A stretch of DNA of 64,000 nucleotides from contig CM060733.1 of NCBI GenBank assembly GCA_030704615.1, positions 2,542,001-2,606,000 of the forward strand, written 5' to 3'. Of the stretch, positions 2,058 to 58,884 are shown piece by piece. Each line of letters opens with the position of its first letter. Position 1 is the stretch's first letter. A program made the position numbers and the translations under genes. Source of the DNA: Takakia lepidozioides (taxonomy: Eukaryota > Plantae > Bryophyta). Below the pieces are notes generated by a model. That model saw nothing but the letters and a program-made list of their open reading frames with translations, made no database searches and had not been told where the DNA came from.

Positions 2058-2807
2058 AGCTAATTAATTTTAGTCTCAGTTCAAAGCTCAGATTGTAGGG
2101 CCCAGAGTAAAGCTTTTCTCAGGGACTGTTTGTTGTTTTGAGGTATTTACACTTGTTCTCTAGGTCTGAGAACAATCCAATTCTGTTATATGTACCGATA
2201 GGTTAGCACTAAACACTTGTACAAAAAATCAAAGAGGTTGAACTTTACACACTTAAGAAATTACTATCTTTGTTCTTGCAGCAACCAAGCTACTATCCAA
2301 TCTCTAACTTCTACATCTTCAAGGATTATTGTGGGAAGTGGGGCAGTGTAATTGCTGTGGACAAGATTTGCTAGAGGGTACAGAACGGGTACATCATCCT
2401 TCATGATCAAGCGGGCTGTACAGCATGTTGTTTTACTTTTTTCCAAAGAAAGAGGAGGAAGCCCTTTGAGTCAGGAAAAATTAGCTTTGGGGAATGCCAT
2501 TCTAGGCTCATGAGAGGATACAATATCCGGGCTGCATTGGGGGCTAAAAAACGGTAATCAGGTGGCCGCCAAGGAAGGCTTGTCGAAATGTCAGTACAGT
2601 ATGTTGACAATTATGAGCATTACCAGGTGAGTGTGCTACATAATTGATTTATAAACCCAAGCATGACCCAACCTGTACAAATTTGTTATCAATACTTGGA
2701 CTCCCATAGAGGGGATGCTTACTAAATAGCCTTATGTCAGATTTAGATACCTTATGATACGAATGAGTTCCTTTTCTTTGGCTCAAATGTTTCTATGTTT
2801 CTCCTCG

Positions 2808-25031: not shown

Positions 25032-25759
25032 TATCACGGACATAGCCCAGAGGAACTTACTAGGAGTAAATACCAGAAATTATTAAATTATCATATTATC
25101 AAAAATTACCATATTTTATTGTGATTTATCATGATTTACCATAAATTATCATAAGTCACCAAGTTATCGGGAGTTTACCAAATTACTGAGAGTAACTTGG
25201 AAACTGCTCACGAAGCTTCATTTTGAAGAAACTTCTCCTCAAAATACCTCATTTGTTTAAGGAAACTTCTCCATCAAGAAACCTTTGTTTAATGAAACTT
25301 CTCCGTCAAGAAATCTTTGTTTAACCTTGAAAACTTCTCCATCAAAGAAACTTCCATTGGGAAAGCTTCTTAAGGAACTTCCTAGTAGCCAGTATATATA
25401 GGAGGCGAGACTGGACACTCTTCAGTCTCACCAACACAAGTTCAAGCTACTCTTGTTTCCAGTCTCATTATTCCAGTTCAGCAGCCAGTATTCTAGTCCA
25501 GTTTCTAGTATCTGACACTTTAGTCCAGTTTCTAGTATCTGACACTTAGTCAGTTTCAGTATCTGTTTAGTCCAGTTTCCAACATTCCAGTATTCAAGTC
25601 GAGTTCCAGTATCTTGTACTCTTGTCCATTGTTATAAAGATCATCTTGATTCATGTTTACCCATCATGCATTAGGCCACACCGACTTTGACTTCTTGTCT
25701 AGTCTTTTACCTCTAGTCTGATCTCTTGTTTGTGTTCAGTCATGTTCTCATCCTTGATA
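25032..25759. mobile_element. Degenerate solo-LTR copy (family X)
   Basis: Same ends and internal repeats as the clean copy at 53533-54074 (t[g/a]tcacggacatagcc...gttctc.tccttga[c/t]a). Confidence 0.75.
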
Positions 25760-26391
25760 TCATCTACATTATACAAAAGATTTTATGTATGAATTTTTTT
25801 TTATCCAATAAAAAAAAATTAATATCTTCGAATATAGCTAATTTTCTTAAAACATAATTATCAAAAATGACCAAATTATCGGGAATTATCAAATTTACTA
25901 AAAATTATCATGATTTACCATAAATTACCATAAATTACTATGAATTATGAAGTTATCAAGAGTTACCAAATTACTGAGAGTAACTCAAGAAATTGCTCAA
26001 GAAACTTCATTGGTTGATGAAGCTTCTTAAGAGACTTCTTTTGGTGGGAGAAGCTTCTCAAAAGACTTTCCTTGGTTGGGGTACCTAGTATATATATAGG
26101 AGGCGAGACTGGACACTCCCTCAGTATCGCCATCACAAGTTCGAACTACTCTTGCTTCCAGTTCTAGTACTCTCGCCCAATTGGTACTTAAGTCCAGTTT
26201 CCAGTATTCTAGTACCAAGTGTCACAGACATAGCCCAGAAGAATTCGCCAAGAGTAATTATCAGAAGTTATCAAGTCACGAGGAGTTACCATGATTTATC
26301 ATGATTTATTATGATTTATCATAAATTACCATGAGTTAGCAAATTACCAGGAGTAAGTACCAAATTACTGAGAATAATTTAGTGGATGAAG

Positions 26392-32300: not shown

Positions 32301-35300
32301 GAAGTTACCACTAAGGGGCAGCAGCCGACCCCCCAACCCACTTAGCCGGTTGGTGTTGAAAATGAGCGGCCACTGGCTGGTTCAACTCAAAATATTTCCC
32401 GGACACTGGTCACAGTCCTTCATGACGCCGGCGGCGGCGCGAAAGTTGGGACTCCCGACAAGTGACGTGGGGGCCTCTATTGAGGTGCGTTCTGCCAAAG
32501 GAGAACCGCAATTGGCGACAAGGTTGGCGTTTGATGTTCCTCTTCAACTGGGGAGTTGGGGGGGACGTGAGAACTTCACCATCTGCGAGATCGATGGAGT
32601 GGATCTCATTTTGGGGATGACCTTTTTGAGCAAATCCGGAGCGGTCATAGATGGCCGCAAGAGAGTAGTCACGCTGCCATGTGGGAATGGTGGCGAGGTC
32701 TTACGAGTGTCGGAAACGCCCAAATCCGTGGAGGGCGAATAAAACTTCTGTCAGCAAGGGAGTGGGCCATGGAGGAGGCACACGAGCCCCAGTTTTTGCT
32801 TTACATTAGAGAAGTAAAGGGAGAAGGCGATGGGGAGCCGAGCCCAGATTGGATCAAGGGGATTTGAGATACCAGGATGTGATGCCGGAGGATTTACCAA
32901 GCGGCTTGCCACCGCGAAGAGGAGTTGACCACAAGATCGAGGTGATACCGGGATCGGAACCGCCTGCTAAGGCACCCTACCGGTTGAGCCACAGGGAGTT
33001 GGTCGAGCTGAAGACTCAGCTCAAGGATCTAATGTCAAAGGGGTACATCCGGCCGAGTAAGTCACCTTACGGAGCCCCGGTGCTATTCGCAGACAAGAAG
33101 GATGGGATGCTGCTGATGTGTGTCGATTACAGGGCTCCGAATAAGGTGACTATCAAAAACCGGTACCCTTTGCCAAAGATCGACGACCTCTTCGATCGGT
33201 TGGCAGGAGCGAAGTATTTCAGCCGGATCGACTTGCGCTCCGGCTATCATCAAATTCGGGTGGCAGAAGGAGATAAGGAGAAAACTGCGTGCAGGACAAG
33301 GTATGGTTCGTATGAGTTCTTGGTGATGCCTTTCGGGCTCACCAATGCACCAGCGACATTTAGCACGCTGATGAACAGCCTTTTTCAGGAGTGGTTGGAT
33401 GACTTTGTGATCGTGTACATCGACGACATCTTGGTGTACTCGAAAACAAAGGAGGAGCACCTAAAAAAGGTGTTCCAAAAATTGCGAGAAGGGAAGCTGT
33501 ATGCCAAAGCTTCAAAGTGCGAATTTGGGGTCACAAAAGTGGAGTTCCTGGGGCATGTGATTACACAGGATGGGATCAAAATGGATGACAGAAAGGTGGG
33601 GTGATCTTGGACTGGGAGCCTCCGACTTCGGTCCCGGGAGTGCGATCCTTCCTAGGACTCGCCTCCTATTACCGGAAGTATGTGAGAAATTTCGCCAAGA
33701 TCGCAGGGCCGTTGTCAGACCTTCTGTGTAAATCCAAAGTCTGGGTATGGAACACCTTGTGTGGCCAAGCTTTTGCTGAATTGAAGCAGCGGATGGCGGA
33801 AGCTCCAGTCTTGAAAATCCCGGAGTTCGATCGTCCATTCGAGATACATACAGATGCGTCGGACTTCGCGATTGGGGGTATATTGATGCAAGATGGACGT
33901 CCAGTGGCTTACGAAAGTAAGAAACTGAATGAAGTGGAGCGACGGTGGCCGACGCACGAGAAAGAGATGAAGGCGGTGGTGCACTGTCTTGAGCTTTGGC
34001 GCCACTATGTTGGTTCCAACCCAGTGAAGGTGTTCACGGACAATGTCACGGTGAAGTATTTTGCCACGCAGCCCAAGTTGTCCCCAAAACAACTTAGGTG
34101 GCAAGATACTTTGGCAGTGTTCGACGTGGATATCCAGTACAAACCGGGACGAGACAACGTGGTAGCCGATGCTTTAAGTAGAAAGCAGCAGCTCTTGTTG
34201 GTGTACAAGGGCGAGACGGCGCTCCAAAGGAAGATCCGGAAGGCTTGCCGGAAGGATGAGCTGGCGAAGTCCGTGATGCAGGACTTGAGGATGGGGGTTA
34301 AATCGCAGTTCCACTTGCAAAATGGACTGCTCCGGTATAAGCAAAAGCGTCTCTACGTGCCGAGGAAGGATCAGAGATAGCCTCTTGAGAGAATGCCATG
34401 ATAGCCCGCTTGCGGGCTACGACGGAGCCAAGCGCACTGCGGCACTCTTGAAGAAAGAGTATTTCTGGCCCAAACTGAGGGAGGAGGCAGAGAGTATGTC
34501 AAGACATGCACCACATGCCAACAAAACCGGAGCGAGTACAAAAAGCAAGCGGGGCTGTTACAACCCTTGCCGATTCCAGAGGGGACTTGGGAAAGCGTCT
34601 CGATGGATTTCATGACTGCTATGCCGCTGTCAAAATGATTCGATGCAATCATGGTGGTGGTGGATAGGTTCAGTAAAATGGGTCATTTCATCCCCACCAA
34701 GGAGACGGCAACGGCGCAGGAAACAGGGCGACTTTACTTCGCCCACGTCTTAAAGCATCATGGAGTCCCAAAGGATATTGTCTCGGACCGCGATCCAAAA
34801 TTTACGAGTAAATTTTGGAGGGCACTTTGGAAGAAGATGGGGACGAGGCTGAAGATGAGCACCGCCTTCCGACCCACGACCGACGGCCAAACAGAAAGAG
34901 TGAATTCCGTAGTGAAGCACATCTTGCGGAATTACGTGTCGGCAGACCAAACAGACTGGGTGGAACACTTAGACGCGGCAGAGTTCTGTTATAATAACAG
35001 AACACTCCGCAACGGGAGTTTCCCCTTTTGTATTGGGTCTATGGAAAAGCACCTCTGGTGCCGACAAGTTGGGCCGCCCAGGACGTTGAGGAACCGACAG
35101 TAGCGGCGGTACTAGAAGAACGTGAGCGTTTGTTGAAGCTCGCAAAGTACAACATTGCCAAAGCTAGGAAACGGTATGAAAGGCAGGCGAATCGGAAGCG
35201 GAGGGAAGTGAAGTTTGAGGCAGGCACGGAGGTCTGGTTGAACATCAAGAATTTCCGACTACCTCCGGAAGTGAGTCCAAAGTTCGTACCTCCGTATGCG

Positions 35301-37295
35301 GGACCCTTTCGCATCCGGAAGGTTATGAATGAGGATGTGTATGAATTGGAGCTGCCGGCAAACAGCAAAGTGCATCCAGTATTTCACGTCTCCTTTTTGA
35401 AGCCTTACTTCAAAGATGAAGCGCGTCCGAATCGGCATCAAGTGTTGCGTCCGCCGCCTGTGTTGTTGGATCATGAAAATGAACCTGAGTACGAGGTGGA
35501 GGCAGTACTTAAGTCGAGGAGGTTCAAGAACCGAGAAACGGAGTATCTCGTCAAATGGAAGGGCTATCATCATGTGGAGGCATCTTGGGTGCGTGCCTCA
35601 GAAATGGGAAACGCATCCGAGGCGGTTGCAGTTTTCGAAGGGCGACCTCAAAAGCGGAAGAAGCGTTGATGGGGACATCAACCTTGGAGCGTGGGGGAGG
35701 AAATGCATGCTTAGCCCGGCTTAGCTAGCTCAGGAATCCGATTGCAAAAACTTGTATTGTACAAAAATTTGTTATAAAGGAAATGGGTTCCAAATGTTGT
35801 GTGTCCTATTTTGTTTGGAATGGTGATGCATGGTGTGCTTGGCTAGTGTGTAGAATGCATGCTAGCTTACAAAAGTGGGAGAGGTAAATTGGGTTAATCG
35901 TGTGTTTGCGCAGTGCCGAAATCGAGTGACTCCCATCCAAGGGGCAAGGAAACATGCGCCTTCTTTGGGAGTTCACGTGCTAGTGCGCACCTGGCGCGTG
36001 CGCGTACTATAACTGCGCTACCGAGGTGGTTGCCTTGTAGTGCGGGCTAACGCGGAAGCTATGTGCTTCCGTTCACGTACTCTACTCGTGTAGCCTCGTG
36101 ACGAAGTCGTAGTGCGGCTTCCACGTGTTCCCGTACCTCAGCCAGCATTCCAAGACGGACCCATTGTAGTGATTGGGGCGCATGCGGTTGGTTCAAGTTA
36201 TCTTCCTAGTCAAAGGGGGTTCGAGGTGAACCCTTGCGCAAAGTGATGCCAAAGCGCATCAGGAGCGATCGCAATCATGTTGTGTTTGTTCAGTAAGGGC
36301 GATTCGATCCTCGGGGAGGATCGTTTCCTTGACCTTGAAGAAGGCCAAAATGGTGCATTGGAGGAGCTTGAGAGGCTCCACCACTTGCCGTGACTTGGAG
36401 GGAAGTCGGCCAAACTAGCTAGTGGAGAGTAGAGTCAAGTGTGGGGTTTGGTTCTTTGCCATGGGACGCCATGGTACGGAACAAACTCCTTGATGTGGGA
36501 CCCACAACCTTGGATTTTCGTTTCTACAAAATGGACAGTCGATGAGGACATCGACTCCCTGTTGGTAGGGGTGTGTGTCGGGCCCTTTGCCTTGAGGGGC
36601 AGGGGGTTCGGGACACATGAGGGGCTACCCCTGTGGTGGGGGTAGCGGCAGCGATAAGGTATGGGGGGCTGAAGCACCCTTGAGTGCCCAAGGCACTCCA
36701 GGAGGCGGAGGCGCTCACTAGGTGGCCCCGCCCACCCGGGTTGCGGTGGGGGTGGCTCCACAAGGTGGTGGTAGCTTAGCGGGACTTAGTGGGGGTGGCA
36801 TAGGACTCACCATGGGGCGGGGACCTCGTGGTGGGAGTCGTGTGGAGTCTTGGGACTCATCACGGTCCAGGGGGCCCGTGGTGAGTGGCAAGACTCAACC
36901 GCGACTCATCACCGGGGAGTCGAGGGTTTTCGTGGTGGTTCGCCATAAAATGGCATGTCTGGTTGTGAAACCCCCCGCGGACAGCTACAGTAATATATAG
37001 GGAGTAGTAACCCCGAAACGGTGCAAGCCCCGTTGTGACCAAAAACTAGTGAGTAAGCGAGCGAGCCGGAAGCGACCAAAGAGTGGGGAGCTGTTTCGGA
37101 CTGCCAACTGCCAAGGGAATTCCCGTTGGTTCCACATCGGTGGAGGGTTCTTTGGGAGACAAAGGGGACCGTTATGCCCCGGTGAGCAGCCGAAGCTCCA
37201 AGTTGGCCCGACGGCCAGGTTGGGAGTCAGGCGCGCGCAAGTAAGCGAGTAACTATGACTTGAGGGGGGAGCTTACCGAAGTGAGGTGCGCGACA
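26392..37295 (+). mobile_element. Full-length Ty3/gypsy chromovirus (Galadriel-like), frameshifted
   Basis: LTRs 26392-27117 and 36576-37295 (TG..CA), TSD tgaag, tRNA-iMet PBS tggtatcagagc at 27120, purine tract before the 3' LTR. Gag with CCHC-like knuckle, protease LLDTGA, RT (YIDD), RNase H (TDAS), integrase (SDRDPKF..TERVN), GPF motif and chromodomain (EYEVEAVL..YLVKWKGY..ASW). Confidence 0.96.
28465..32408 (+). mobile_element. hAT DNA transposon (ZNF862/DUF4371-like transposase) inserted in the chromovirus protease
   Basis: Imperfect TIRs caatgaacgggaa / ttcccggacactg and 8-bp TSD gtcgcagt / gtcacagt; removing the element restores GASQSFMT. Transposase at about 29679-31895 has IDESTD, SDGA, HCVAH, RWLSR, CERAFS, with frameshifts. 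Internal tandem duplications at 28720-29200. Confidence 0.93.
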
Positions 37296-38039
37296 TGAAG
37301 CTTCTCAAGAGACTTCCCTGGATCGATGAAGCTTCTCAGGAGACTTCCTTAAGTTGGAGGATCTTTCTTTAGGCAGGGAAAGTTTCTGTAGGACTTCGTT
37401 TGGCTGGGGAAGCTTCTTAGGAGACTCCTTAGTAGCCAGTATATAAAAAAGGCAGACTTGGCACTCATCCAGTCTCGCCAACACAAGTTCAAACTACTCT
37501 TATTTCCAGTCCCAATACTCATGTCCAGCTTCCAGTACTCTAGTCCAGTTTCCAACATTCTAGTATTCCAGTCGAGTTTCAGTATCTTGCACTCTTGTCC
37601 ATGTTATAAATATCATCTTGAGTCTTCTTTACCAATCATGCATTCGACCATGCCGACCTTGACTTCTTGTCTGGTCTTGTACCTCTAAGTTTGATCTCTG
37701 TTTGTGTTTCATCATGCCCTTGTTCTTGACACCAAGTACAGTTCCAGCATCTTATATTCTTGTCATTTTTGTAAAGACTACATAAAGTTCCTCTTAATTC
37801 ATGTTTACCCATCCGCAGACCTTGACTTCTTGTCTAGTTTTATACCTCTAGTCTGATATCTTATTTGAGTTCAGTCATGTTCTCGTCCTTGACATTGACT
37901 GATATGGGTAGAGATCACGTTCTGCCTTGGTATATAAATTCGCAGAGATCGGACATACCCGTACCACTCTATGCCTCAACACCAATACATTCATATCATC
38001 CTTCAAAGGTTCAAGTTGGAATTAAGTAATGCAGTTGCA

Positions 38040-43283: not shown

Positions 43284-46136
43284 GTAGGGTTGGGGTGTTT
43301 GCTGGAACAATTCTAGGTTGTCATTGTTAGCTGCTAGCAGCAAGGCAGATGTGTGCATGATTTGTGTAGAGGCCTGGATAGCTGAAGGAGCAAGGATAGA
43401 GTGTGAAGATGCTTTGTGAGGCAGACTGACAGAGGCTCTACAGACTTTAAACCAACGAGGCATTTCAGCAGATTCAACGTACGTCTGTATCTTGCTTAAG
43501 TGCATCAAGATGAAAGGTCTTGAAGCTGGAAATAGGTGCACACTCACATTATCCAAAGTGGATTCACGCCAAAAACAATTCTATCCAACACCCTTGTCAA
43601 CATGTATGTTAAGTGTGGGAGCATCATGGATGCTCACCAAGTTTTCCACATAGTGCCTCAACGATCTTTGATCACGTGGAATATAATGTTGGCAGGATTT
43701 ACCAAGGATGGGTGTGGTAGGAATGCTTTGGAGACCTATGAGCAACTGCTACGCGAAGGGTGAAGTCCAATCACATCACGTTTGTTTGTGTTTGCAATGC
43801 GTGTGCAAGGCTGGGAGCTCTGGGAAAGGGGAAAGAGGTCCATGATGACATCGTCAAAGCTGGATTTGTACTAGATGTCATTCTGAACCCTGCCCTGGTG
43901 GACATGTATGCCAAATATGGGTGCATTGAGGATGCCAAGGGAGTGTTCAACACTATGGCTGAACGAGATTTGGTGTCGTGGAACGTGATGCTTGCAAGGT
44001 GTGCAGATCAGGAGCGTGGGATGGGGCTTTGGAGACCTTGTCAAGTTATTTAACCACTAGTGTGAAACTAGCTAGGAAATAGCTAGTTTTTACATATTGA
44101 CATTTGGGATTGGCCCAAGTGTCAATCCAGGGGTCAAGGCAGATTTAGGCCCTGGAGTGGTTATCTTCACGGCAAGCGCGGGAGGCTCATCTTTCTTGAG
44201 TTGAGCCTCACCGCGCCTAGCTATGGCGCCGTAGTGTGGATTCCCCATGGCGCGGGGTGCACTTGGCTTGACTTGTATTTGAGTAATGAGGTTATATATG
44301 CATGAGTTTATGCTTCAGCTTTGTGAGCTCGCATGAGCTTGTGCTTGTATTCTTCTTCTTTATCACTCGAGAAAGATCAGCTCGTATTTGTGAGTGCCAA
44401 ATACGAGTTAGTTGTAGCACTTGTGGTTTTTGCTTGAGAATGAGAGAAACCAGGTTGTTATGCAAGGAGCACCGTGGAGTTCTTGATTGTTAGAAGTGGA
44501 GGCGATGTGGGTTATGAGGTGGTAAACCTTGGCATTCGATCTTCAGCTTCAGAGATGAAAGCACCATGCTGCAGGTAATTCCAGAGCACCTTGATGGTTT
44601 CAGATTGTGTACATGCATGAGCAAGCACGATTGGGAAGAGGACCAATCAAGAGCAGGTTACAGTGGCTTTGGTGGAAAATCTGAGAACTAGCCTTGGAAA
44701 TGCGAGCTTTCATTGTGTGAAGGATTGCAAGACCAAGCGAAAGGGCTGATTTGGCTTGGGGCAAATCAGTGTACTTTGTGGAGTATGTTGAGATTGGGTT
44801 TCAATCTTGAGCTTCAGCATTGAGAGGGCTCTTGTCATGGCAAGAGCAGGGCTGGAACAGGAGCTAAGAGGTGCGGCAAGACAATGGAATGTGCACCTAG
44901 GGTTTCAGAGCTTGGAAGAAGAGCTCTTGCACCACAAGAGGAGTGTCTTGTGGCTGGAAATGTAAGCCTTAGGGTTTCAGGAGCTTGGCAAAGGTTGTGG
45001 AGTGCTTAGTCTTGTCTTAGAGAGCATCAAGGAGCTAAGGAGCCAAGATAGGGGACTGATACCTCTTGTGTGAAGAGGTTGCATGTGTGGAGCATGTATT
45101 CAGCTCATTGAAGCTTCCATCTTCAAGCTTGGAGGGCAAGCAAGGAAGAGGGAAGGGCTGACTTCCCTTATGTGAGAGCAATGCATGTATGGAGCATGCT
45201 TTCAGCCTGTTGAAGGCTTGTACTTTCAGGTTTGGGAGTGCAAGAAAGGAAGGAAGGGCTGGTTTCCCTGTAGGGCATGTGTGGAGCATGCTTCCAGCCC
45301 GCTGAAGCGTGTATTTTCAGGTTGGTGGGTGCAAGAAAGAAAACAAATGGGCTGATTCTCTGGTGGTGAGAGTGGGGCATGTGTGGAGCATGCCTTCAGT
45401 CCATTGGGCTTTTGTTTTCAAGCTTTAGAGAGCTAGAATGGAAGGGCTAGGGCTGGTTCCCACTTGGGTGAAAGAAAAGCACTTGTAAAGCATATGTGAG
45501 ATGGGGTTTCAACCTCAAGCCTAGATAGAGCATGGCTCTTGAAGTGGTAGGTATAGGGGGCTGGAATAGGCTCTAAGACAGATGCTATGGCCAAGGAAAA
45601 TGCTTGAATGAGTGCTCACAAGGGCTGGAAACCAGCAAGGCTTGGTTGTTTGCCATTGAGTTTAGTGGCGTGTTTGGGGAGTCTAAGTGAGAAAAAAAGC
45701 TTGGTTTGTGGCAACCATCTTCCTCATGGCTTAGGGCTACTATTGGTGGTGTGTAGGAGCCAAAAGAGCAAGAATACCTTGCTGATTTCTTCACAGCCGC
45801 CATAGCTCGGTGCAAAGAAGCCTAGCGTCCAAGCCCCATGGGATTCATGTGTGGAGCATCACTATCACTAGTGCAGGTGGAGTCTGCTGCAGCCGTGACT
45901 CGAGGAGCAGCACGAGTTCCTGAGCCACGAGGTGCAGAGGTGGAGTTGGATCCACAACATGGGGAGGCAAGCCGTCAGGCTAGGCTTCCTCAGTCATTCA
46001 CATTGGCGGAGACAGTGTCGACGCCATCCATGGCACCTAGTTCTCGCTCGACTGTTACTGAGGCGGAGGTTACTATGCCATTGGGGAGAGCTACACGGGT
46101 ACACTACCTAGTGTTGCCAAGGCTACGGCAGCTAGT

Positions 46137-47042
46137 GTGCTGCTAGAAGCGGCCACATCTGTGTGCCAGGCTCCATTGTTCTCGGCTACCATGATTGCGA
46201 CGCCGGGGGTAAGACCAGCTGAGGTGTTCAGGCTGGTAGCTACACTCTGTAACAGTGGGGAGGTTACTTTATCTTCTGCAGAGATAGTGGGAGGTGTAGT
46301 GCCGGAGGGATCCTTGGATTTGAGGGTCAAGACTGCCACGGCAGCGCCATGGCAAGTTGCAGCTGCCAGGTTGATGGAGCTGCCAGCTAGGCCAGCCATT
46401 GAGCGCACCATGGTGACACCTGGAGTTGTCATGTTAGACAACCAGGATGACATTTTCTATTTGAGTGGACCGGCAGACAAGAGGTACCGGCCACTGCGGG
46501 TCTTGTTGGATTCGGGAGCTCAACCATTGATGCTGGGCAGAGCTGCTATTGCAGGCTTGGGCCTCATGGAGGCGGATATGGAGCCTTGTCCTTTCCAGAT
46601 ACAGACGTCTCTGGGAGGATCGGAGCAGGCTCGGGGCATGACACGGCGTGAGTTGGCTATCAGACTACAGCCGGATCACCCTACAGATGGCTCAGTGATG
46701 CGAGCCAAGGCCATTGTGACAGACGCGGTCTCATACGATGTCCTGGTTGGTGGGGCAGTATTGTACCCCATGGGCTTCACCCTGGATTTTTGGGAGGAGT
46801 CAGCTTCCTATAGGCCTGGATGGCAGTCAGGGGAGCGCCGGCGTATGCAGCTCCCTGTGACGTTCATAGGAGGAGTTGCGGTTGCCCAGCGAGGCAAGAT
46901 GCCGACACTAACAGCATTCACAGCGGCAGTGAGTTGGCCTAGAGAGTTGATTGAGGGCAACGCTCATTCAGAGAATGTACCACCTCCGGGAGAGCAAGAT
47001 GACATGTATGGTATGGCGGAGTTGTCTACCATGGTTGCTTAG
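46137..47042 (+). CDS. Retropepsin-like aspartic protease region of the element's polyprotein
   Basis: RVLLDSGAQ motif and downstream YDVLVG. Confidence 0.8.
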   Translation: MLLEAATSVCQAPLFSATMIATPGVRPAEVFRLVATLCNSGEVTLSSAEIVGGVVPEGSLDLRVKTATAAPWQVAAARLMELPARPAIERTMVTPGVVMLDNQDDIFYLSGPADKRYRPLRVLLDSGAQPLMLGRAAIAGLGLMEADMEPCPFQIQTSLGGSEQARGMTRRELAIRLQPDHPTDGSVMRAKAIVTDAVSYDVLVGGAVLYPMGFTLDFWEESASYRPGWQSGERRRMQLPVTFIGGVAVAQRGKMPTLTAFTAAVSWPRELIEGNAHSENVPPPGEQDDMYGMAELSTMVA

Positions 47043-47214
47043 ACTCCATTGTGGGGCACGAGCAAGGATTTTCAGCGGGATGCTGATCGACGGGTGCAAC
47101 AAGTCTGGGTGGAGGCTTTTGTACTGTCAGGAGAGGAGGAGAGTGCGGGGATTGCACCAGGACCACCTCAGTTGTCTCCATTGGACACCACACCTATTGT
47201 GTGGCAGTATCCGG

Positions 47215-48180
47215 ATGAAGGCATTTGTCTTCTGGACTTGTTTGGCGGAATCAGCACCGGATTGGCTGCTGTGTTACAGGCAGGTGTACGAGTTCGACGT
47301 TACCTGTATGTGGAGAGGGATGAGACTGCACGACGCGTTTCACTTTGCCATGTTGCTCAGTTGGTGCAGCGGTACCCTGAGTTGTTGTCGGTGTCTGCAA
47401 TTCGTGGATATCAGTAGGCCTTGCCAGCAGACATTTTGTTGCTGGGGGCGCATGATTTGGAGCGGGTTGGCTCCATTGATCTGGTAGTGGCAGGTTGGCC
47501 CTGCCAAGAGCATTCATCAGCCGGGCATGGCAATGGATTGCGAGACTCGAGGTCGGGTCTGTTTTGGAAGAAGGTGCGGGTTTTGCGCCACTTGCAGCTT
47601 CATCAAGCTGTATCTCCAGCATACATCTTGGAGAATGTGCCACTGATGGACGATTCTCGGGCCAGGGTGATGGCCAGTGTGCATCAAGTCCGGTCATGGC
47701 TTGGGTCAGCAGTGCTGCTAGATGCAGCTACAGTGGGGTCACGGGCTCATCGTCCACGGCTATGGTGGACTAACTTGATGCCACCCGCACTGCTCAAGCG
47801 TGCATTTGATGGGGTGTAGCGGCCAGCACATCTCACAGTGGATAGCATTCTGGACACAGGGAGGCAGTCTCAGCGTGTGAGACACGATGACCGTTCGCCT
47901 TTGGCAGTGGTCAACAAGGTGGGTCAACCACGAGCAACATTATCTACACTGCTCAGTTTCCCAGGATCGCATGCTTTCCGGGATAGTGGACCTGGCCTCT
48001 TGTAGGATGCTCATTTGCAGCAGTTAGTGGAGCCTAATGCTGACGAGCGTGAGCGGGCAATGGGTTTTACCACTGGTACCACGGCGGTGTCGTCTCTTTC
48101 TGAGGCATCACGTCGTCAGGTGTTGGGGCAAGCAATGGATCTCAATTGCTTGACCTGGATTATCAGCTTGGCTATGGTTG
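47215..48180 (+). pseudogene. DNMT3-like C5 cytosine DNA methyltransferase domain within the retrotransposon polyprotein (in-frame stops)
   Basis: Motifs in canonical order: I LDLFGGISTG, II YLYVERD, IV DLVVAGWPCQ, VI YILENV, VIII RAHRPRLWWTNL, IX ERERAMGF, X RRQVLGQAM. Confidence 0.92.
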
Positions 48181-48634
48181 AGCAACGGAGAATGCGGAGT
48201 ACACTTTCCTCGATGGTCTCTCTGCCTACCGAGACGGTACAGGCAGTGAGTGGGGGCGAGCATGTGAGGACCACGGGGTGCAAGCATCCATGACACACGT
48301 GGGATGTGCTCGAGGTTCAGAGGGAGTTGACAGCCAAGGCGGCTGTGATGGATGAGGTTGGGGATTCTTCTGGGGTTGAGGAGGTCCTCAAGGATGAGAT
48401 GATGGGGCAGGATGAGGCCTTGTCATTGACTGAGCAAGCAGGGAGTACTGCTCAAGAGGTTGCGGCATAGCAACCACGAGACGCGTCCTCTACCTCTAAG
48501 TCTGTTGGACTTAAGGTTGCAGTTACGAAGGGCAATTGGGAGCCTGACATTGGACCTATTGTCACTAGAGAAGAGAGACGACGTATACAGCGGTTCCTGA
48601 GGCTTACAGGAATTGCTTTGCCTCTCGTGCTACG

Positions 48635-50359
48635 GTGGAGGAGCACGAGAGACATGTTCAGGTTCTGCATCGACCGGGTTTGGTCAATAGGGATGCGGAT
48701 GGATTGAGTCGCAATCCATGCACGAGCCAGCAGGATGACACTAGAGCTCGGTGGCATGGTGAGACGGACGAGGAGATGGTGTCGGGATGGCATGCATCTG
48801 CCTTTTTGTGTATCTTGGCATCGGGAGGTCAGGTTGGACCTACAACAGGGATGACTGTAGACGGAGTGTCTGAGGACCCTGAGGCTAGTGATGAGCCAGG
48901 TGGTGCCAGAGATATACATGAGGATTCGGTTGTGTTGGACTACCTCCGCACTAGAGATACGGCAGCTAGTGTGACTGCCAAGGAGAGGGATCGGATCCTA
49001 CAACGAGCCAAGAGGTTCAAGTGGGAGGGGATACATCTGCTTCGAGTATGGGAGGATGGTCAGGTGAGGATCGTGCCTCACCCAACACAGCGTGCACGGT
49101 TAGTGCGGCATGCCCATGAGGAGTTGGGGCATTTTGGAGTGCGACGCACTCACAGTTTACTGCAGGGGCAGTATTGGTGGCGTGGTATGCATACAGAGGT
49201 GCAACAATTCGTGGCTAGGTGCATGGTGTGTGACAGGGTGCGTGCTTCATTCAACGCCCCTACACCATAGTTGCATCCTTTACCAATCATGGGATTGGGC
49301 TACAGGTCGAGTCTTGACTTCGCAGGACCGTTGCCACTGACTATGCGCCACCACAGATATGTGTTGGTGATGGTGGAGCACTTCTCCAAGTGGATTGAGT
49401 TGGTTCCATTGCCTGACAAGGCTAGTGAGGGGGCTGCGTATGCATTCTTGGATCGTGTGCTTAGCCGATTCGGTGCTCCAGCTGAGGTACTCACGGACCA
49501 AGGGAGAGAGTTCTTGGGGGAGTTTCAGGCTTTGAGTAATAAAGCCTTGATAGACTACCGCACCACTTATCGGGATCATCCTGAGGCCGATGGCTTGGTA
49601 AAGAGAGTTGTTCAGACGGTGAAGAGGGGTTTGCACAAGTATGGCTTGCAGAAAAAGGGACACCTATGAGATTGGGATCTTCAGGTTCATTGGTTAGCCA
49701 TGGGCTACAGGTTCAGCAAACAAGCATCACTTGCCTCCTTCTCACCATATTTCCGTCTCTTTGGCCGAAAGCCGGATTTGCCTGCAGCCATTCGTAGGGA
49801 CACTGCTCAAGTCCTTAACCTTGACGATCCGGACGTGTGGGTACATGCATGTGATCAGCGTGCAGAGTTGTTCAAGAACGTCATGCCCATGGCTTTTGAG
49901 AACCTTGCCATTGCACAGCACCGTGATACGTTGAGGTATGCCACTATACATGGTGGAGGATATCGTCCTGGGGTTCGGAGGTTTAGCCCTGGTGACTATG
50001 TTTATTTGCAGCAGACTGCTCCTACGACTCTGGATGTTACTGCAGGGCGTGTTATTCTGAGGGTTCGAGAGGTGTTGCCCTCAGGGGTCCTGATCTTGGA
50101 GGGTCGGGATGGCATGACTTGGAAGGACCATGTGCGTAATTGTGCGCCATGTCACCTTCCCAATGTCGATGGCAGAGTTGACCCAAACTTGGCAGTGGTA
50201 CCTGCAGGTTTGAGGTGCATGGTCTGTGGGTCTGCCAAAGGGGCAGCCACCATGCTGGTGTGTGATCGATGCTCAAGGGGTTGGCATATGGGATGCTTGA
50301 CACCACCTCTTGAGAAGGTTCCTGATGGAGATTGGTTGTGTCCACACTGCTTGGGATAG
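48635..50359 (+). pseudogene. RNase H C-terminal remnant, integrase (HHCC plus core) and C-terminal PHD finger
   Basis: HRPGLVNRDADGLSR; HEELGHFG..CMVC; LDFAG, EHFSKW, TDQG.EF, DGLVKR (catalytic E apparently changed to K); PHD CMVC..MLVCDRCSRGWHMGC..PDGDWLCPHC (C4HC3). Confidence 0.9.
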
Positions 50360-52384
50360 TGGCAATGGACATGACTGGAGGCAGCTAACAAGACATAGGA
50401 GACCAAGCTCATAGGAGTCAATACATGATATCCCAAGCTCAAGTTCACAGGTTGCAAGACGGCGACTAACGATGGGGCAACTCTTGCACCCGACCTCTTG
50501 ATCTATCGAGTTTGAGTGTAGTAGGGATAGTGGTGGAGAACTTAGTGAGGCTATGGTCACTATCACATCTTGTGGCTACCTGGACTTAGAGGGACCTAAG
50601 CACCAGCTAGGGGGGCGATTGTGTGGACTAGTGACTGCCATAGTGGGCAGCATAGTGGCAGCCTAGTTGTAGCCTAGTGGTTGGACTAGTGGCTGGACTA
50701 GTGGTATACTACTGTGTGGTGTGCACATGTGTTGTGTGGTTTTGGACAGGGATGTAGTTGTGTAGCGATATGTATGCGCACGACAGCTGTCAAGTTATTT
50801 TACCACTAATATGAAACTAGCTAGGAAATAGCTAGTTTTTACATATTGACATTTGGGATTGGCCCAAGTGTCAATCCAAGGGTCAAGACAGATTTAGGCC
50901 CTGGAGTGGTTATCTTCGCGGCAAGCGCGGGAGGCTCATCTTTCTCGAGTTGAGCCTCACCGCGCCTAGCTATGGCGCCGTAGTGTGGATTCCCCATGGC
51001 GTGGGGTGCACTTGGCTTGACTTGTATTTGAGTGATGAGGTTATATATGCATGAGTTTATGCTTCAGCTTTGTGAGCTCGCATGAGCTTGTGCTTGTATT
51101 CTTCTTCTTTATCATTGTGTGGACTAGTGACTGCCATAGTGGGTAGCATAGTGGCAGCCTAGTTGTAGCCTAGTGGTTGGACTAGTGGCTGGACTAGTGG
51201 TGGACTAGTGGTATACTAGTGTGTGGTGTGCATATGTGTTGTGTGGTTTTGGACAACGATGTAGTTGTGTAGCGATATGTATGCGCACGACAACCTAAAA
51301 GCAAATGATGGGGGAAGGGGTGAAGCTTGACCACATCATGTTTGTATGCGTTTGCAGTGTGTGTGCAAGCCTTGCAGCCCTAGAAAGCACATGCAAAGAG
51401 GTGCATGGTTGCATCACCAAAGCTGGAATTGTACTAGATGTGATTATGAACAATACCCTCGTGGGCATGAATAGCTGAAGGAGCAGGGATACAGTGTGGG
51501 TGCAGATTCATCCAAGATGGCCGGATTTCAAGCTCCAGATTACCTATGATTCCCTATGGAATGATAGCTACAAGAAACCTGCATGGGTAGATGGTCAACT
51601 GGTAGCCGCAGCAACAGCGGCACAATTGATAAAATCAGGCACCGCTAATGAAGGCACCTTTTTCAACACATGAGACCATTTTCCCCTCTTATCAGAATCG
51701 GCCCTAAATTTCCATGTTGCATTTTGCAAGTTAGCTGGTTGAGTGAAATCTAGTTGGAGTGACTTTGACATGATATTGCCAATGTGAGGAAAGTATCCAA
51801 AAACAGGTAACAGAGATGAGGAGAAGCTGTGGAATGAATGCTTTTCTGACCTTAGTCAATGGTCGGACAATCAAGGCAAACAGGTGTATGCGTGTCAATG
51901 ACCAAATGTCATTCTGAACACTGCCCTGGTGGACATGTATGCCAAATGTGGGTGTATCGAGGATGCAAAGGGAGTGTTCAACACTATGGCTGAATGAGAT
52001 GTGGTGTCGTGGAGTGTGATGCTTGCAGCCATCGCGCTACCTGTCAGCAAGACAACTCCCAAACCTCCAGTCCTTGATTGCCAGAATGGGGTAAGGGTTC
52101 CCTACCTGCAATTTTCCATTGCTTGAAACCTTGATCATGTATCTTCTGCCGTTTTCGGGCTGGATGGCAGTTGAAGGTGGGTGACCTAGTCCGGCCAAGC
52201 CAGTGTATGCATCTTCTGCAGTCTACTTAGACTTTGCAGCTTTGTGCATTTTTGTAGCAGCACCGGATTAGATTATGGAACGGATCTCTGAACATTAAGT
52301 CACGTTGTATTTGAATCGATGTTCCAATTTCAAATGTGCTTTCATGTTTCAATGGTGTTTTTGTGTTTCAATGCTATGGTCATG

Positions 52385-53038: not shown

Positions 53039-53327
53039 AGAGGGTAGAGGAAAATAGCTCCATATGCAACGAATCTAGATAAAGTTAAAGATATTATAAG
53101 AGAGGCTTTTGTCTTGAAGTTGAAGCTAGTCCATTACGAGACTACTTAACATATATAGTAAAAATGTCTAAAAACAAGTTTTAGTGATTATTTTTAGCCT
53201 AGCTAGAACTATATAAGAAGCTCGTCGGTGAAGCCACAAATCAATTGTTCTTGTTGTGTGCTTTTATGGTTGGGTGAAGAGCTTCTATACAATCCTCTTT
53301 CATCTTTGTTGTTCTATCTCTGTTTTC

Positions 53328-54520
53328 TCAAGTTACAGTGCTGAAGAGTATAGAGATGTCATTTTAAGAAATCGAACGAGTTACAACAACGTGCACTCGT
53401 TATTGGTACAATGTTTGATTTTCTATATCTAGTACCATATGTTTAAGAAACTTGGGCTACCTTAGGCAACGGAGGTACACATCGTTTACACCGAAGTTGA
53501 GAATCGAAATAGAAAAGAACAAACCAATATACTGTCACGGACATAGCCTAGAGGAACTTACCAGGAGTAAATATCAAAAGTTACCAAGTTATCAAAAATT
53601 ACTGTGATATACCATGATCTACCATAAGTTATCATTAGTTACCAAATTACCGAGAGTAACTTGGGAAACTGCTCATGAAGCTTCCTTTGGAGGAAACTTC
53701 TCCATCAAGAAACCTCATCTGGGGAAGTCTCTTAGGGAACCTCCTAGTATCTAGTATATATAGGAGGCGAGACTGGACACTCTTCAGTCTCACCAACACA
53801 AGTTCAAGCTACTCTTGTTTCCAGTCCCAGTACTTTAGTCCAGCTTCCAGTACTCTAGTCCAGTTTCCAGTATCTGGTACCCCAGTCCAGTTTCCAGCAT
53901 TCCAGTATTCGAGTCGAGTTCCAGTATCTTGTATTCTTGTCCATTGTTATAAAGATCATCTTGATTCATGTTTACCCACCGTGCATTCGGCCACGCCGAC
54001 CTGGACTTCTTGTCTAGTCTTGTACCTCTAGTCTGATCTCTTGTTTGTGTTCAGTCATGTTCTCGTTCTTGACATATACTATATTGGTTACCCAACTCAA
54101 AGACAGAAGAAAGTTGGGAGTCAATTATATATATTTCGGAGATTCCAACAGTTGATAAATTGATTATGGCTTGTTACATCGATGTGAGATGTTATGAGGT
54201 GGTCTTGTTCTGTAACCTAAGCCACAATCGGTTTATCAAATGTTGAAATCTCCGAACTTCGTATAATTGATTCCCAACTTCATTCTGTCTTTGAGTTGGG
54301 TAACCAATATGGTATATTGGTTTATTCTTTTCTACTTCGGTGTAAACGATGTGTACCTCCAATGCCAAAGATAACCCAAGTTTCTTCAATATGGTACTGG
54401 ATGTAGAAGATGTGTTTGGAATCAACACTAGATCGCTAAGGAGTGCGCGTTGTTGTAATTTTGTAGCAGCGTTCGAGATCTTGAAATGATATCTCTATAC
54501 TCTTCGGCACATGTAACTGA
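53328..54520. repeat. Long (about 300 bp per arm) imperfect inverted repeat or foldback, left arm interrupted by a solo LTR
   Basis: 53328-53532 plus 54080-54178 is reverse-complementary to 54211-54520 (e.g. ggttacccaactcaaagacagaa / ttctgtctttgagttgggtaacc). Confidence 0.85.
53533..54074. mobile_element. Solo LTR (family X), 542 bp
   Basis: TGTCA...TGACA ends with 5-bp TSD tatac. Confidence 0.9.
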
Positions 54521-54807
54521 CAAAATAGTTGTCAAAACAAATTACACATTGACGCAATAATTTTGTTATGTTTTGTAAATGTTTCTGTATTTGTCGTAAA
54601 CAAACATAAGCATCGCTTCATTCACTCTTTATATTAAGTGCCAAAGGTAGTTGGCGGTGGTCGACAATTCAATATAATACTAGTTTGCCAGTGTGCACAC
54701 CAACGACCTCGTCAAGCCAATGGTGCTAATCCTCTCGAGTTTGGGTCCATGGATTTGTATACTGCTGATCCTTCAAGGTTGCGTCGAGAGGGTTGCAGGG
54801 CAGGTTG

Positions 54808-57800
54808 TGTGAAGTTATTCTAGAAAGAAGACAAGACAAGAAAACTAAGAAGAATTCATATTAAGCTTGTTTTATAATGAGAAACATGTCTCTATTTATA
54901 CATAAAGTCAACAACTATAATTATCTGGGTATGAATAATCACACCTTTTATAATCTAGCTAATATGGGTTTCGTGTTCAATTCTCATCACTCCCCCTGAA
55001 ACTATATTAGCGTGCTTCATGCTAAATAAAAGTTTAACTCGACTTACACTTTTAGTAAGGAAATCAGCTACCATTAGTTCAGTAGTACAATAGGCTAATT
55101 TAAGTTCCCCACTAGTTGTCTTTTCTCTTATGTAGTGAAATTGAATTTCTCTGTGTTTAGATCTAGTATGGAACTTTGGATTTTCCGTTAGTGCTATTGC
55201 ACTTTGATTATCGCAAGCAATAATAGTAGGATTAGATTGTTCATGTTTTAAATCTGTCATTAATCTCCGTAACCACACCGCTTCCTTGGCAGCAAGAGTC
55301 GCAGCAATGTACTGTAAACACCATGAAGGTTTTCTTATTCTAGTAGATCGACGTGGACTACTAGGTTGACTTGAGGGTTCAGGGAGATCAAAATCATCAT
55401 CTGAATGGTCATTAAAAGTAGGAGAAATAACTGGTGGAGTGGAGTTTACAGGTTGGTTAGTAGGAGGTATTAAATTTTGAGGAGGAATAAGAACATTAGA
55501 TGGAGTAATTGAAGGAAGACGGTCAGCATTTGGTGGAGAGAGGGCATAAAAAATGGATCGAGGGACTGAAACAGAATGGGAATCAGGATCAGGATCAGGA
55601 TCTGGAGGGCTTCATTAAAGGAAACATCCCTACTAATATGAATGGTTTTATTTGGTTCATAATAAAGACGAAATGCTTTTGATGTTTCATCATAGCCAAG
55701 CAAACGACATAGAAGGCTTTTAAAATCTAATTTCTTTCTGAGTTCATCAGGAATGTGCATGTAAGCCTTACATCCAAAAATACGGATATGTGATAGAGTA
55801 GGCTTACGGCCAGTCCATTTCTCATGAGGGGTCATATCAATTACGACATTTGTAGGTAAGCGATTTTGTAAATAAGCTGTTGTTGAAACAGCTTTTGCCC
55901 AAAAGATTTGGGTAGTTTAGAATAGTCAAGCATACAACGAGCGCTCTCCATGAGTGTGCGGTCCTTCCGCTCTGTGCGACGCCGTTCTGTTGAGGTGTGT
56001 AGGAAGTAGTCATTTGTCTTGAAATGCCATGTGTAGTACAAAAATCCTTAAATGCATTAGATTTATATTCACCCCCTCCATCTGAACGTCTTTAGGCGCT
56101 TGCCAATAAAAGTTTCAGCATGAGATTTAAATGCTTGAAAATGAGTAAATGTTTCACTTTTGTTTTTTAGAAAGTAGAGTTTAGTCCAACGGAAGGAGTC
56201 ATCTATAAAAGTTAAGAAAATATATAAAACCCGTAAAAAAGGGGACCGAAAGTGGACCACAAATGTCAGTGTGGATCAAATCTAGAATGTTTTCACTTCT
56301 ATATTCACTTGTGCGAGGAAACTTAGTGCGGGCATGTTTTCCCATAACACAACTAGGACAAAAATTAAGGTGGGGAAATCGTTTTAATTTTACGCCATAG
56401 ACATAAGGAAGAGTATAAAGTTGTTGTAACTTTTTAATTCCTATGTGTCCTAATCTTAAATGCCACAGTTCAGATTCATTTATTTCTTGATTGGTAATAT
56501 TAATAAGTGGAGAAGAGATTGATGGACAATCAGCAAGTGCTTTAGGATATTTAGATTGACCCAATTTATATAACTGACCCTCTGGTGTAAATGTAGTAAT
56601 TATATTAAAGTAAGGGGCTTTATTTTTAAGAACACATTGTGCAGGTGAAAAAATAAAGGTATAGCCAACATTAACTCCTTGACTGACTGAAATTAAAATT
56701 TTCTTAATACCAGGGACATATAAGACATTTGATATAAACTTTAAATCTCCTGAAGTTAGCTCAATTTGAATTGTGCCATGGCCTTTAATAGGATAAGATG
56801 AGTTATCTCCAGTGTTGTGCGGGTCCGGGTTTTGAAGGCGGGTACCCGTACCCGGCGGGTTAGGATCTGGGTTACCGGGACCGTGCTATCACAAAAAACC
56901 CGGACCCTGACCCAGGACCCGCCTGCTGGGTCCAGAACCCCTTAAAACCGCGGGCCAATGTTGCGGGTCAGGGTCCGGGTCTTAAATTTAGATGGGGCAT
57001 GCGGGGTCCACCTTAGCTCTGGTAGGTTTTGTCACATGTGTGGAGGGGACGAGCAGCAATAGGCCACTGCAGCAGCCAACCACCTCAAAAGCGGTTGTGG
57101 GTTCAATCCACGGAGTGGTGTCACAAAGTTGTGCCCTATGGGACCATAATTTACACCTCCCAAAGGAGGCGTCATATATTATTATTAGGCCAGATCCCAC
57201 ACATCCATGCTATAGTGATCTACCCTTGAGGCATATTACTATTCTTAACATGTTTAAAGAATTGATATTGAAAAATAGAAAATGGAACTCAAACTTCTAT
57301 TTTAATTCTTATTCATGGTATACATATTCATATTCATGGTATATTTTGAAGGAATGTCTCTTAAATTAAAATTCATTATTAGGATTTAATTTTTTTTCCT
57401 GCCAAAAATAATTTTATCCCTTATTTTTCTAATTTATTTAATCAATAAATTAGGACCCGGATCCGAACCCGTGAACCCGCTATCTTCCAACAACTACCCG
57501 GACCCTAACCCGAGTCCGTGTTTACAAACCCGGACCCGAACCCGGACCCGGATTTTCCAAATTTCAAAAACCCGGATCCGGACCCGGACTTGGCTCCGAG
57601 AAAAAACCCGCACCCGGACCCCGGCGGGTTCCTTAAAAAGGCAGAACCCGCACAACACTGGTTATCTCCCAAATAGACATTTTGGGAGGTTGTTGTTAGT
57701 ATGGTGTTGAAAAACAATCTTCGTTAGATGTCATATGTTGTGAAGCACCAGAATCAACAAACCATATATTGTTATTAATTTCAGCTGAGATAGATGTTAC

Positions 57801-58884
57801 AAACAATTGAGTGTTTTGAGATGCTGAACTATTTGTATGACCAGAACGACACTCTTGAGCTATCCTGATTCGACAATATTTTATATGATGGCTTAACATG
57901 TTACAATGAAAACACCTTATTACAGGTATTCTGTTAGGAAATTTGTTAAATGGAGTTCAAATAGAAGAACGTGGTCGTGGTGTAAAACTTGAACCACTAG
58001 GTTTTGGACGAGATCTATAACCAAAACTTGATCTTGGTCTTAATTTTTGATTTTTTTAAAAATATTAAATAATGCAGTATTGGAGACAGGCTCAGGTTCT
58101 TCACCTTGTCGTCTCAATTGTTCTTCTAATAATAATTTAATAATATCTGTTAGTGTGCCAATTTTACCCGTTTGGGCCATGACAAGACCAGAATAGGACT
58201 TAGGCATAGAACCTAAGAGGTTTGCTGCTGCATCGTTATCTAGTGGCCGTTCATCCATCAAATTACTAAATTTATTAATGTGCGCTTGCACACTATCATT
58301 TTCCATCATTTTTAAAGTAAAGAATTTCCTCGTTAGAAGATTTTTACTGATTAAATTACTCTCTTCATATAAAATATGTAAGTGGTCCCAGACCTCGTTG
58401 GAAGTCTTTAGGTGTTTTACGTGTACTAACAGATTATCTTTCATACATAAAATTATATCTCCTTTGGCTTTATTATTTTTCTTATCCCAAGCTCCTTGAT
58501 TGGTTGGTGTGCCTCAGAACCATCTACTACGTGCCATACATCTTCTCTTAATAATACATTTCCATTCGTGTTTTCCATATGCTATAGTTAGTGCCGTCAA
58601 GACGGTCAACTAAATTATTAGATGGACTCATGATGGACATGATTTCAAAAGTGTTAGAATTCTCTATTGACTCTAAATTCTAGTTTGCAAAGTATTTCAT
58701 TTCTCATTATTAACTCAAGCTCTGATACCGACAAGAAAACTTAAAAGAATTCATAATAAGCTTGTTTTATAATAAGAAACATGTCTCTATTTATACATAA
58801 AGTCAACAACTATAATTATCTGGGTATGAATAATCACACCTTTTATAATCTAGCTAATATCGGTTTCGTGTTCAATTCTCAACA
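54808..58884 (-). mobile_element. Ty1/copia element with short LTRs; RT deleted, degenerate
   Basis: LTRs 54808-54989 and 58730-58884 (the latter lacks about 27 bp at its inner end), TSD ggttg, iMet PBS at 58719-58729 and PPT agggggag. Gag, WFVDSGASQHM, WHLRLGH..CPSC, IHTDICGP, and RNase H CDNQSAIAL..HTRSKH. Confidence 0.92.
56810..57660. mobile_element. Non-autonomous hAT element (MITE) inside the copia
   Basis: 15-bp TIR cagtgttgtgcgggt, perfect 8-bp TSD gttatctc, subterminal acccg/cgggt repeats. Confidence 0.93.

Follow-up and report, generated by a model that had tools for sequence, protein, structure and literature searches.

KnitGypsy-Dnmt3 of Klebsormidium nitens joins a Gypsy pol to a DNMT3-like domain, and the legend of Fig. 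4c in its published account describes a DIRS-like repeat arrangement (PMC5890265). Here and below, statements on published systems refer to the accessible text of the sources cited. In that text, the account of KnitGypsy-Dnmt3 makes no mention of land-plant members, target-site duplications (TSDs), self-priming, a conserved stop or an integration mechanism, and the term PHD occurs neither there nor in the three readable supplements (PMC5890265). Streptophyte and dinoflagellate cases are repeated in a 2025 paper (PMC12344493). The elements named EpiLTRs also combine a reader and a DNA methyltransferase within one LTR element, but they differ in having a chromodomain, DAM and a DNMT4-related enzyme, and are found in Cymbomonas and Euglena (10.64898/2026.05.21.726589).

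Chromoviruses (Tcn1 and the Tf1/Sushi group) place a histone reader behind the C-terminal domain of their integrase, the same position as that of the PHD finger described here. REM1 is said to hold a PHD in an antisense ORF alongside a chromodomain. The reversed ORF of REM1 is described in PMC2774666, and Neumann et al. describe Tf1-type self-priming of Tcn1 in place of a tRNA primer (PMC6317226), as is predicted for the present element. PHDs also occur in Chlamydomonas Gypsy, Penelope-like and CR1 elements, for which targeting has been proposed (10.1101/2022.06.16.496473, PMC8557442, 10.1101/2021.11.30.470311, PMC6673714, PMC9977147, PMC2774666). In Gypsy-7a_cRei, the PHD has been proposed to limit harmful insertions, and Gypsy-7a insertions are intergenic 2.6 times more often than chance (10.1101/2022.06.16.496473). 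The Gypsy-7a legend places the PHD before the integrase, and, unlike in the element analysed here, no DNMT is reported in the accessible descriptions of the Chlamydomonas PHD Gypsy elements.

Here we report a computational analysis of a Ty3/gypsy element in a 64,000-nt stretch of Takakia lepidozioides DNA (hereafter referred to as the window). By its DNMT3-like domain within gag-pol and its DIRS-like repeats, the element is assigned to the family of KnitGypsy-Dnmt3, and the Klebsormidium proteins P0115 (PR-MT-RT-RH-IN, partial) and P0091 match the window family directly. Its polyprotein ends with a PHD finger at the integrase C terminus, which is retained across the family. In the openly readable text of the literature, we found no Gypsy element described as having both a PHD and a DNMT3, and no account of circles integrating by way of an internal attachment site.

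Element structure and the C-terminal PHD finger

The element (44039-51292, + strand) has TGTC...GACA ends, is flanked by an ACCT duplication and encodes, in order, a protease, a DNMT3-like methyltransferase, a gap, an integrase, a C-terminal domain and a PHD finger (Table 1). The window copy is dead: RT and RNase H are deleted, stops and a frameshift interrupt the reading frame, and the third catalytic acid of the integrase, present in 90 of the 97 motif-matched relatives, is missing. The loss of RT and RNase H is not family-wide, because about 1.3 kb of additional sequence stands between 48623 and 48657 in a contig from a run with the same organism label. RT-RNase H sequence at this gap in same-organism contigs and in relatives also ruled out a Ginger-like, RT-less DNA transposon. 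Judged by the PR-RT-RH-IN order of the loci and the Ty3-like RT of the relatives, the element belongs to Ty3/gypsy; the best match of the intact relative P0005 is Ty3 Gag-Pol (E=1e-91). The insertion target (43400-44038 and 51293-52100) is degenerate, PPR-like sequence to which many same-organism contigs map, and may itself be a repeat family.

Table 1 Features of the element and their positions in the window
Feature	Position	Strand	Remark
Target-site duplication, left copy (ACCT)	44035..44038	.	inside degenerate PPR-like sequence
Repeat A1, left element end, starts TGTC	44039..44365	+	predicted transcript start near A position 150
Predicted self-priming site	44365..44381	+	complementary to 44185-44201 / 50934-50950 inside A
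Degenerate leader/gag region	44400..46040	+	only 45865-46038 matches Marchantia ORF1 proteins
Aspartic protease, motif LLDSGAQ	46368..46814	+	tblastn, translation
DNMT3-like C5 cytosine methyltransferase, FGG/GWPCQ/ENV/RAHR motifs	47208..48197	+	in-frame stops in window copy
Clade-conserved stop, context TAG-CAR-YY, end of ORF1 (Gag-PR-DNMT)	48468..48470	+	
Deletion junction, ~1.3 kb lost (RT and most of RNase H)	48623..48657	+	
Integrase HHCC (PF17921) and DDE core (rve, PF00665)	49082..49660	+	stops in window copy
Integrase GPY/F-type C-terminal domain, predicted beta-strand, SH3/Tudor-like	49958..50150	+	model
PHD finger, C4HC3	50216..50350	+	stop at 50357-50359
Polypurine tract (PPT)	50609..50617	+	
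Repeat B1, ends GACA	50618..50785	+	
Palindrome GACA-GC-TGTC at the B1/A2 junction, predicted to be an internal attachment site for integrase	50782..50791	.	
Repeat A2	50788..51114	+	
Repeat B2, right element end, ends GACA	51114..51292	+	
Target-site duplication, right copy (ACCT)	51293..51296	.	

The ORF at 49670-50359 closes with a complete C4HC3 PHD finger, which follows the integrase HHCC motif, the rve core and the predicted β-strand C-terminal domain and is terminated by a stop two residues past the last Cys. All eight zinc ligands are kept, as C(50216)xxC, C(50261)xxC(50270), H(50285)xxC and C(50339)xxC(50348), with the conserved Trp (50333) ahead of the last Cys pair. Pfam PF00628 matches with a score of 44.8 bits (cutoff 24; E=1.3e-11), and the strict C4HC3 pattern occurs only once across the six frames of the window. 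These results bear out the original prediction of an intact PHD at the polyprotein end, as does the Gly (50279) that replaces Trp two residues before the zinc-binding His in the G(50279)-W-H(50285) segment, so that the usual H3K4me3 cage residue is absent. An Asp (50264) after C3 and a V-P-x-G-x-W loop complete the local features of the domain. An AlphaFold2 model built from a 16-row alignment has a mean pLDDT of 60, with values of ~78-86 over most of the PHD, which superposes on the PHDs of ATXR5, BAZ2A/B and DPF proteins within 1.0-1.8 Å over 47-51 residues; whole-model TM-scores in the Foldseek comparison are ~0.2. Tudor-PHD proteins are among the Foldseek matches to the integrase C-terminal domain model, at low TM-score.

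The PHD was also predicted to stand in place of a chromodomain. By position, after the integrase C-terminal domain, this description fits, but it is one of position only, not of descent. Neither the window element nor, by precomputed annotation, any of its 119 relatives contains a chromodomain, the repeats are permuted, and the RT of the element family is only 35% identical to that of a chromovirus elsewhere in the window. In our quick tree, which included no named reference sequences, the lone chromovirus row forms a very long branch.

This true chromovirus (26986-37295, +) has LTR-like repeats that are 98% identical, together with RT, RNase H, integrase, SH3_Tf2-1 and a chromodomain, and contains a nested hAT-like piece (~29887-31900; zf-C17orf113, DUF4371). 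The window also holds a degenerate Ty1/copia element whose two terminal repeats share 96% identity (54835-58884, -), remnants of LINE-like RT and endonuclease ORFs (2752-4530 and 9178-10104, both -), and a non-coding repeat family with 10-nt subrepeats (25102-25770, 37392-37900 and 53320-54528, the last with nested inverted arms). A tandem duplication at 15899-17421, with 100% identical 300-nt blocks ~892-896 bases apart, is either recent or an assembly effect. On the reverse strand, an SRA-domain ORF (PF02182, E=1e-34) and a long upstream low-complexity ORF (18954-19799 and 20598-21758) were found, of which the former looks like part of a SUVH-like host gene or pseudogene. An ARTKQ match at 38380 (-) was dismissed as chance and does not mark a histone gene.

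Retention of the PHD finger across the family

A protein search gave 120 matches among 1950 candidates, from which P0120, an unrelated chromatin protein, was dropped to leave 119 relatives. Precomputed annotation places a PHD in 106 of these, a count biased upward by the PHD in the query itself. The strict C4HC3 pattern fits 97 of the 119, the 22 misses including truncated and one-ligand variants, and the residue two before the His in these 97 is Gly in 87, Ala in 7, and Pro, Leu and Trp in one each. Among the best 80 of 396 confirmed metagenome loci, 77 have a PHD match; 25 of these PHDs are intact, all with Gly at the same position. Thus, absence of the PHD from other family members, which the original prediction had named as refuting, is not the case.

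The nearest named proteins are from Marchantia and Calypogeia (top identity 70-79%), and named members extend to Sphagnum, Klebsormidium, Closterium, Coleochaete and Tetradesmus. The earlier remark that PHD retroelements are mainly green-algal does not describe this family, which is also present in liverworts and mosses. Many 'hypothetical' Marchantia gene models, including Mp7g09570, Mp4g09160 and Mp8g17980, are pieces of this Gypsy-DNMT3-PHD family. One relative, P0221, is filed under 'uncultured Synechococcales cyanobacterium' and is most likely a plant or algal sequence that was binned with a metagenome. When viral contigs were scanned for the family, none of the 51 pattern matches proved to be a relative. 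The viral contigs L099, L114 and L117 encode proteins that begin with an H3-like tail followed by non-histone sequence, which are possible histone-tail mimics.

The PHD is terminal in 24 of the 97 strict cases and is followed by an unannotated tail of ~50-560 residues in the other 73. The tail of P0067 has a weak match to an adenine methyltransferase (PF02086, E=0.003, below cutoff), and some long-tailed relatives (P0024-P0113) may combine PHD, DNMT and DAM. The quick tree (98 rows; 96 of the 119 relatives passed the length filter) places the window in a 15-row clade (SH-aLRT 99) of terminal PHDs without the acidic wall discussed below, one row being unscored.

The median NG86 dN/dS between the window and the loci, calculated over pairs that are not independent, is ~0.24 for the PHD (28 unsaturated of 73 pairs), 0.10 for the integrase C-terminal domain (45 of 77), 0.06 for the integrase core (21 of 60) and 0.13 for the methyltransferase (8 of 17), so that the PHD value is 2-4 times those of the integrase and methyltransferase. 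Among the 9 variable PHD positions listed for same-organism contigs, 7 are silent, and a single codon, changed from Val to Leu, accounts for the remaining two. By these estimates, the PHD is under purifying selection.

Probable histone reading and the DNMT3-like enzyme

Among the best 60 of 86 PDB matches of the window PHD, CHD4, PHF12, KDM5B/A PHD1, ATXR5, KMT2C, DPF2/3, BHC80, BAZ2 and UHRF1 are at the top, followed by CHD5, AIRE, KAT6, ORC1b, KMT2D and similar proteins; none of these 60 is an ING, BPTF, TAF3 or ADD domain. The readers ATXR5, BAZ2, KDM5 PHD1, DPF3b and MOZ recognize unmethylated K4 (PMC5415848, PMC5499861). The closest solved PHDs are those of ATXR5, KDM5A/B (PHD1) and BAZ2A/B (E 1e-12 to 1e-10), which share with the window PHD the lack of a cage Trp, the A1 pocket and the first R2-binding Asp. 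Most of the remaining matches presumably also read unmethylated K4.

In ATXR5, A1 is held by Pro60 and Gly62, R2 by Asp41 and Asp44, and K4 by main-chain atoms (PMC5499861). In ATXR5 numbering, the window PHD keeps Asp41, Val59, Pro60 and Gly62 but lacks the second R2-binding Asp: the Asp44 position is Ser (50273) in the window and Asp in 7 of 97 relatives and in none of the 14 members of the window clade. The P-x-G-x-W of the A1 pocket is kept in 12, and the Asp after C3 in 13, of the 14 nearest proteins. Unlike the KDM5 and BAZ2 PHDs, the window PHD has no acidic wall, a feature of helical-H3 PHDs defined in PMC5415848. We scored the wall as Asp or Glu at position -5 or -6 relative to the third Cys, a column set from a KDM5B alignment and a BAZ2A sequence; these residues are Ala-Ala in the window, and the wall is present in 0 of the 14 nearest proteins versus 55 of the 73 long-tailed relatives. 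The moss-type subfamily S2 retains acidic residues at the wall position. The N-terminal, H3-facing half of the domain has a net charge of +3 in the window and a median of +1.5 in the clade, versus -4 in long-tailed relatives. An uncontrolled prediction of a complex between this PHD, zinc and a surrogate H3 tail scored 0.30 against a mark of 0.34 and weighs neither for nor against binding. Together, the residues at the binding surface make H3K4me3 reading unlikely and K4me0 reading likely, and, with neither an acidic wall nor a second R2-binding Asp in the window clade, H3 binding may be weak. Unmethylated K4 is the state of most chromatin, so such a reader would keep away from promoters without seeking out silent chromatin, the destination originally envisaged.

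The C5-methyltransferase (47208-48197; PF00145, E=5e-11) has 31 PDB matches, which comprise DNMT3A/B/C and two entries titled only 'DNA methyltransferase', with DNMT3A the best (E=8e-10); the writer of the predicted reader-plus-writer pair is thus real. The DNMT3-like domain is unpermuted and placed within gag-pol, and its G-[WPF]-P-C motif is kept in 50 of 66 homologues. In the window clade it lies ~2 kb upstream of the PHD, ahead of an in-frame stop between DNMT and RT. This stop has the context TAG-CAR-YY in the window and in seven loci (L008, L010, L015, L030, L002, L016 and L018), is TAA in L023 and TAG-TAA in L049, and breaks database ORFs into Gag-PR-DNMT and RT-RH-IN-PHD; it is absent between DNMT and RT in subfamily S2. 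UAG-CAR-YYA is a readthrough signal, for which our literature search found no paper, and by resemblance to it the conserved TAG is likely to be read through. Because this TAG and the RT-RH region separate the DNMT from the PHD, the two domains probably end up in separate mature proteins. De Mendoza et al. suggested that DIRS-borne DNMTs methylate cDNA (PMC5890265), and by analogy we adopt this as the likely role of the present enzyme.

On balance, we lean towards a model in which the two domains act in sequence on one cDNA, the DNMT writing the cargo and the PHD reading the target. The DNMT, ending ORF1 in the window clade, would be made at Gag-like levels, cut free and methylate new cDNA inside the particle, whereas IN-PHD would be made through rare readthrough of the conserved TAG. 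As the last integrase domain, the PHD would tether the integration complex to a free H3 N terminus with unmethylated K4, and insertions would be biased away from H3K4me3 promoters without being homed to heterochromatin; the cDNA would integrate as a circle cut at the internal palindrome (see below). Histone H3 binding, the K4 preference and any effect on target choice are inferred.

It is unlikely, although worth serious consideration, that the PHD of the window clade no longer reads H3 and binds instead DNA or RNA, a host protein or part of the intasome. The net basic surface, the wall-less nearest proteins and a strongly supported clade in which no scored member is acidic would all suit such a change, as would selection weaker than that on the integrase. 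However, ATXR5 is a K4me0 binder in spite of having no such wall (PMC5499861), and the A1 pocket and the Asp after C3 have been retained in nearly all of the same proteins. We favour H3 reading with a role in target choice over a purely later one, since the integrase C terminus is where chromodomains direct integration (PMC6673714, PMC2774666). A PHD that reads H3K4me0 only once the copy has integrated, or to influence transcription, for example by keeping the new copy or its LTR in a particular chromatin state, without affecting target choice, accordingly seems to us very improbable, even though chromatin remodelling is among the published proposals for transposon PHDs (10.1101/2022.06.16.496473, PMC8557442) and the right-hand flanks have no sequence bias apparent by eye.

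The original prediction likened the pair to the ADD and methyltransferase logic of animal DNMT3. In such an ADD-like unit, the PHD would bring the methyltransferase to K4-unmethylated chromatin, or switch it on there, so that the insertion site is methylated. The co-occurrence that this requires is found: among the best 80 of 396 loci, all 21 that reach the protease have both domains. Moreover, both lie within one ORF in 49 of the 119 relatives, and the DNMT directly precedes the integrase in 44 of the 119, including Tetradesmus P0047; these form a second, partly algal branch, in which an uncut DNMT-IN-PHD protein is possible. By contrast, the conserved stop and RT-RH part DNMT from IN-PHD in the window clade, which makes the analogy poor for the window copy; the DNMT occupies two different positions in the family, whereas the PHD is always on the integrase; and, with no ADD among those best 60 of 86 PDB matches, an ADD fold and a catalytic domain were not found in one chain. 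We therefore consider an ADD-like unit quite improbable, and retain separate reader and writer proteins as the preferred reading.

Permuted ends and proposed integration from circles

The element has the layout A1-internal-PPT-B1-GC-A2-B2, with the palindrome GACA-GC-TGTC at B1/A2, and A1 and A2 are 97% identical (9 differences in 327, 8 of them transitions). Elements of the DIRS order with split direct repeats (Ngaro, PAT and TOC1) also have an A...B-A-B layout, together with a tyrosine recombinase, whereas elements of the window family encode a DDE integrase, begin with TG and end with CA, contain a PPT and are flanked by 4-bp TSDs. Ten two-ended elements, including that in the window, have an exact TSD in six cases, a 3-of-4 match in three and none in one. 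Among the best 80 of 396 loci, two B copies occur in 37 (28 distinct flanks), a single B in 24 (20 distinct), B-A without B2 in 4, a truncated B in 4, no B match in 8 and no PHD match in 3; recurrence of the B-A-B end in 37 of 80 loci with 28 distinct flanks rules out an assembly artefact. The element was set apart from Phygy by description, the NCGN target preference of the latter not being evident by eye in the flanks.

The predicted self-priming site matches A2 perfectly over 13 nt and A1 over 8 nt, and the stem appears in the fold. In 9 of 13 elements, with L069 scored as a miss, the sequence right after A1 complements A positions 151-171 (8-15 nt; control fraction <=0.033), and the loose ends of same-organism contigs lengthen the match to 17 nt by eye. 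A tRNA primer site was rejected on the basis that the letters after A1 match the element's own repeat instead.

The permuted ends fit a normal LTR (B-A) cut at the internal palindrome of a circular cDNA. Reverse transcription from the PPT to the primer site would give ordinary LTRs of the form B-GC-A, and end-joining a two-LTR circle; a staggered cut at the left palindrome, made after CA in each strand, would then yield exactly the double form. The single form could arise from a one-LTR circle, from two cuts or from later B-B recombination. The circle model is supported by the A2/B2 join, which varies among 13 distinct S2 copies (~86-92% identical), being blunt in 4, having two shared bases in 5 and taking other forms in 4. 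It is weakened by the lack of the mirror form that a cut at the right palindrome should yield: none of 14 left ends (those of the window and of 13 loci, one of these a duplicate) has this form.

Extended to the whole family, these elements suggest a widespread green-plant Ty3/gypsy lineage in which circular cDNA is integrated after the DDE integrase cuts it at a palindromic U3 GACA-NC-TGTC site, leaving permuted LTRs, a DNMT3 made at Gag levels methylates the cDNA and the integrase PHD picks K4-unmethylated nucleosomes, with DNMT-IN-PHD of the second branch perhaps being one protein for reading, insertion and writing; we offer this broader picture tentatively, as possible but just short of probable.

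With the present family, the range of Gypsy elements that carry a DNMT3 grows from a single alga to include land plants, where its many copies annotated as hypothetical host genes could distort counts of DNMT3 and PHD genes. A role as targeting modules has been suggested for transposon PHDs over 20 years, and we found no test of the idea in the accessible literature text. For Marchantia polymorpha, both genetics and chromatin maps exist, and because the family is present in this liverwort, the PHD targeting idea is directly testable there. LTR-retrotransposon circles are usually regarded as dead ends; if the permuted ends come from cutting a circle at an internal attachment site, this family would be a case of LTR retrotransposons for which circles are the routine substrate of integration.
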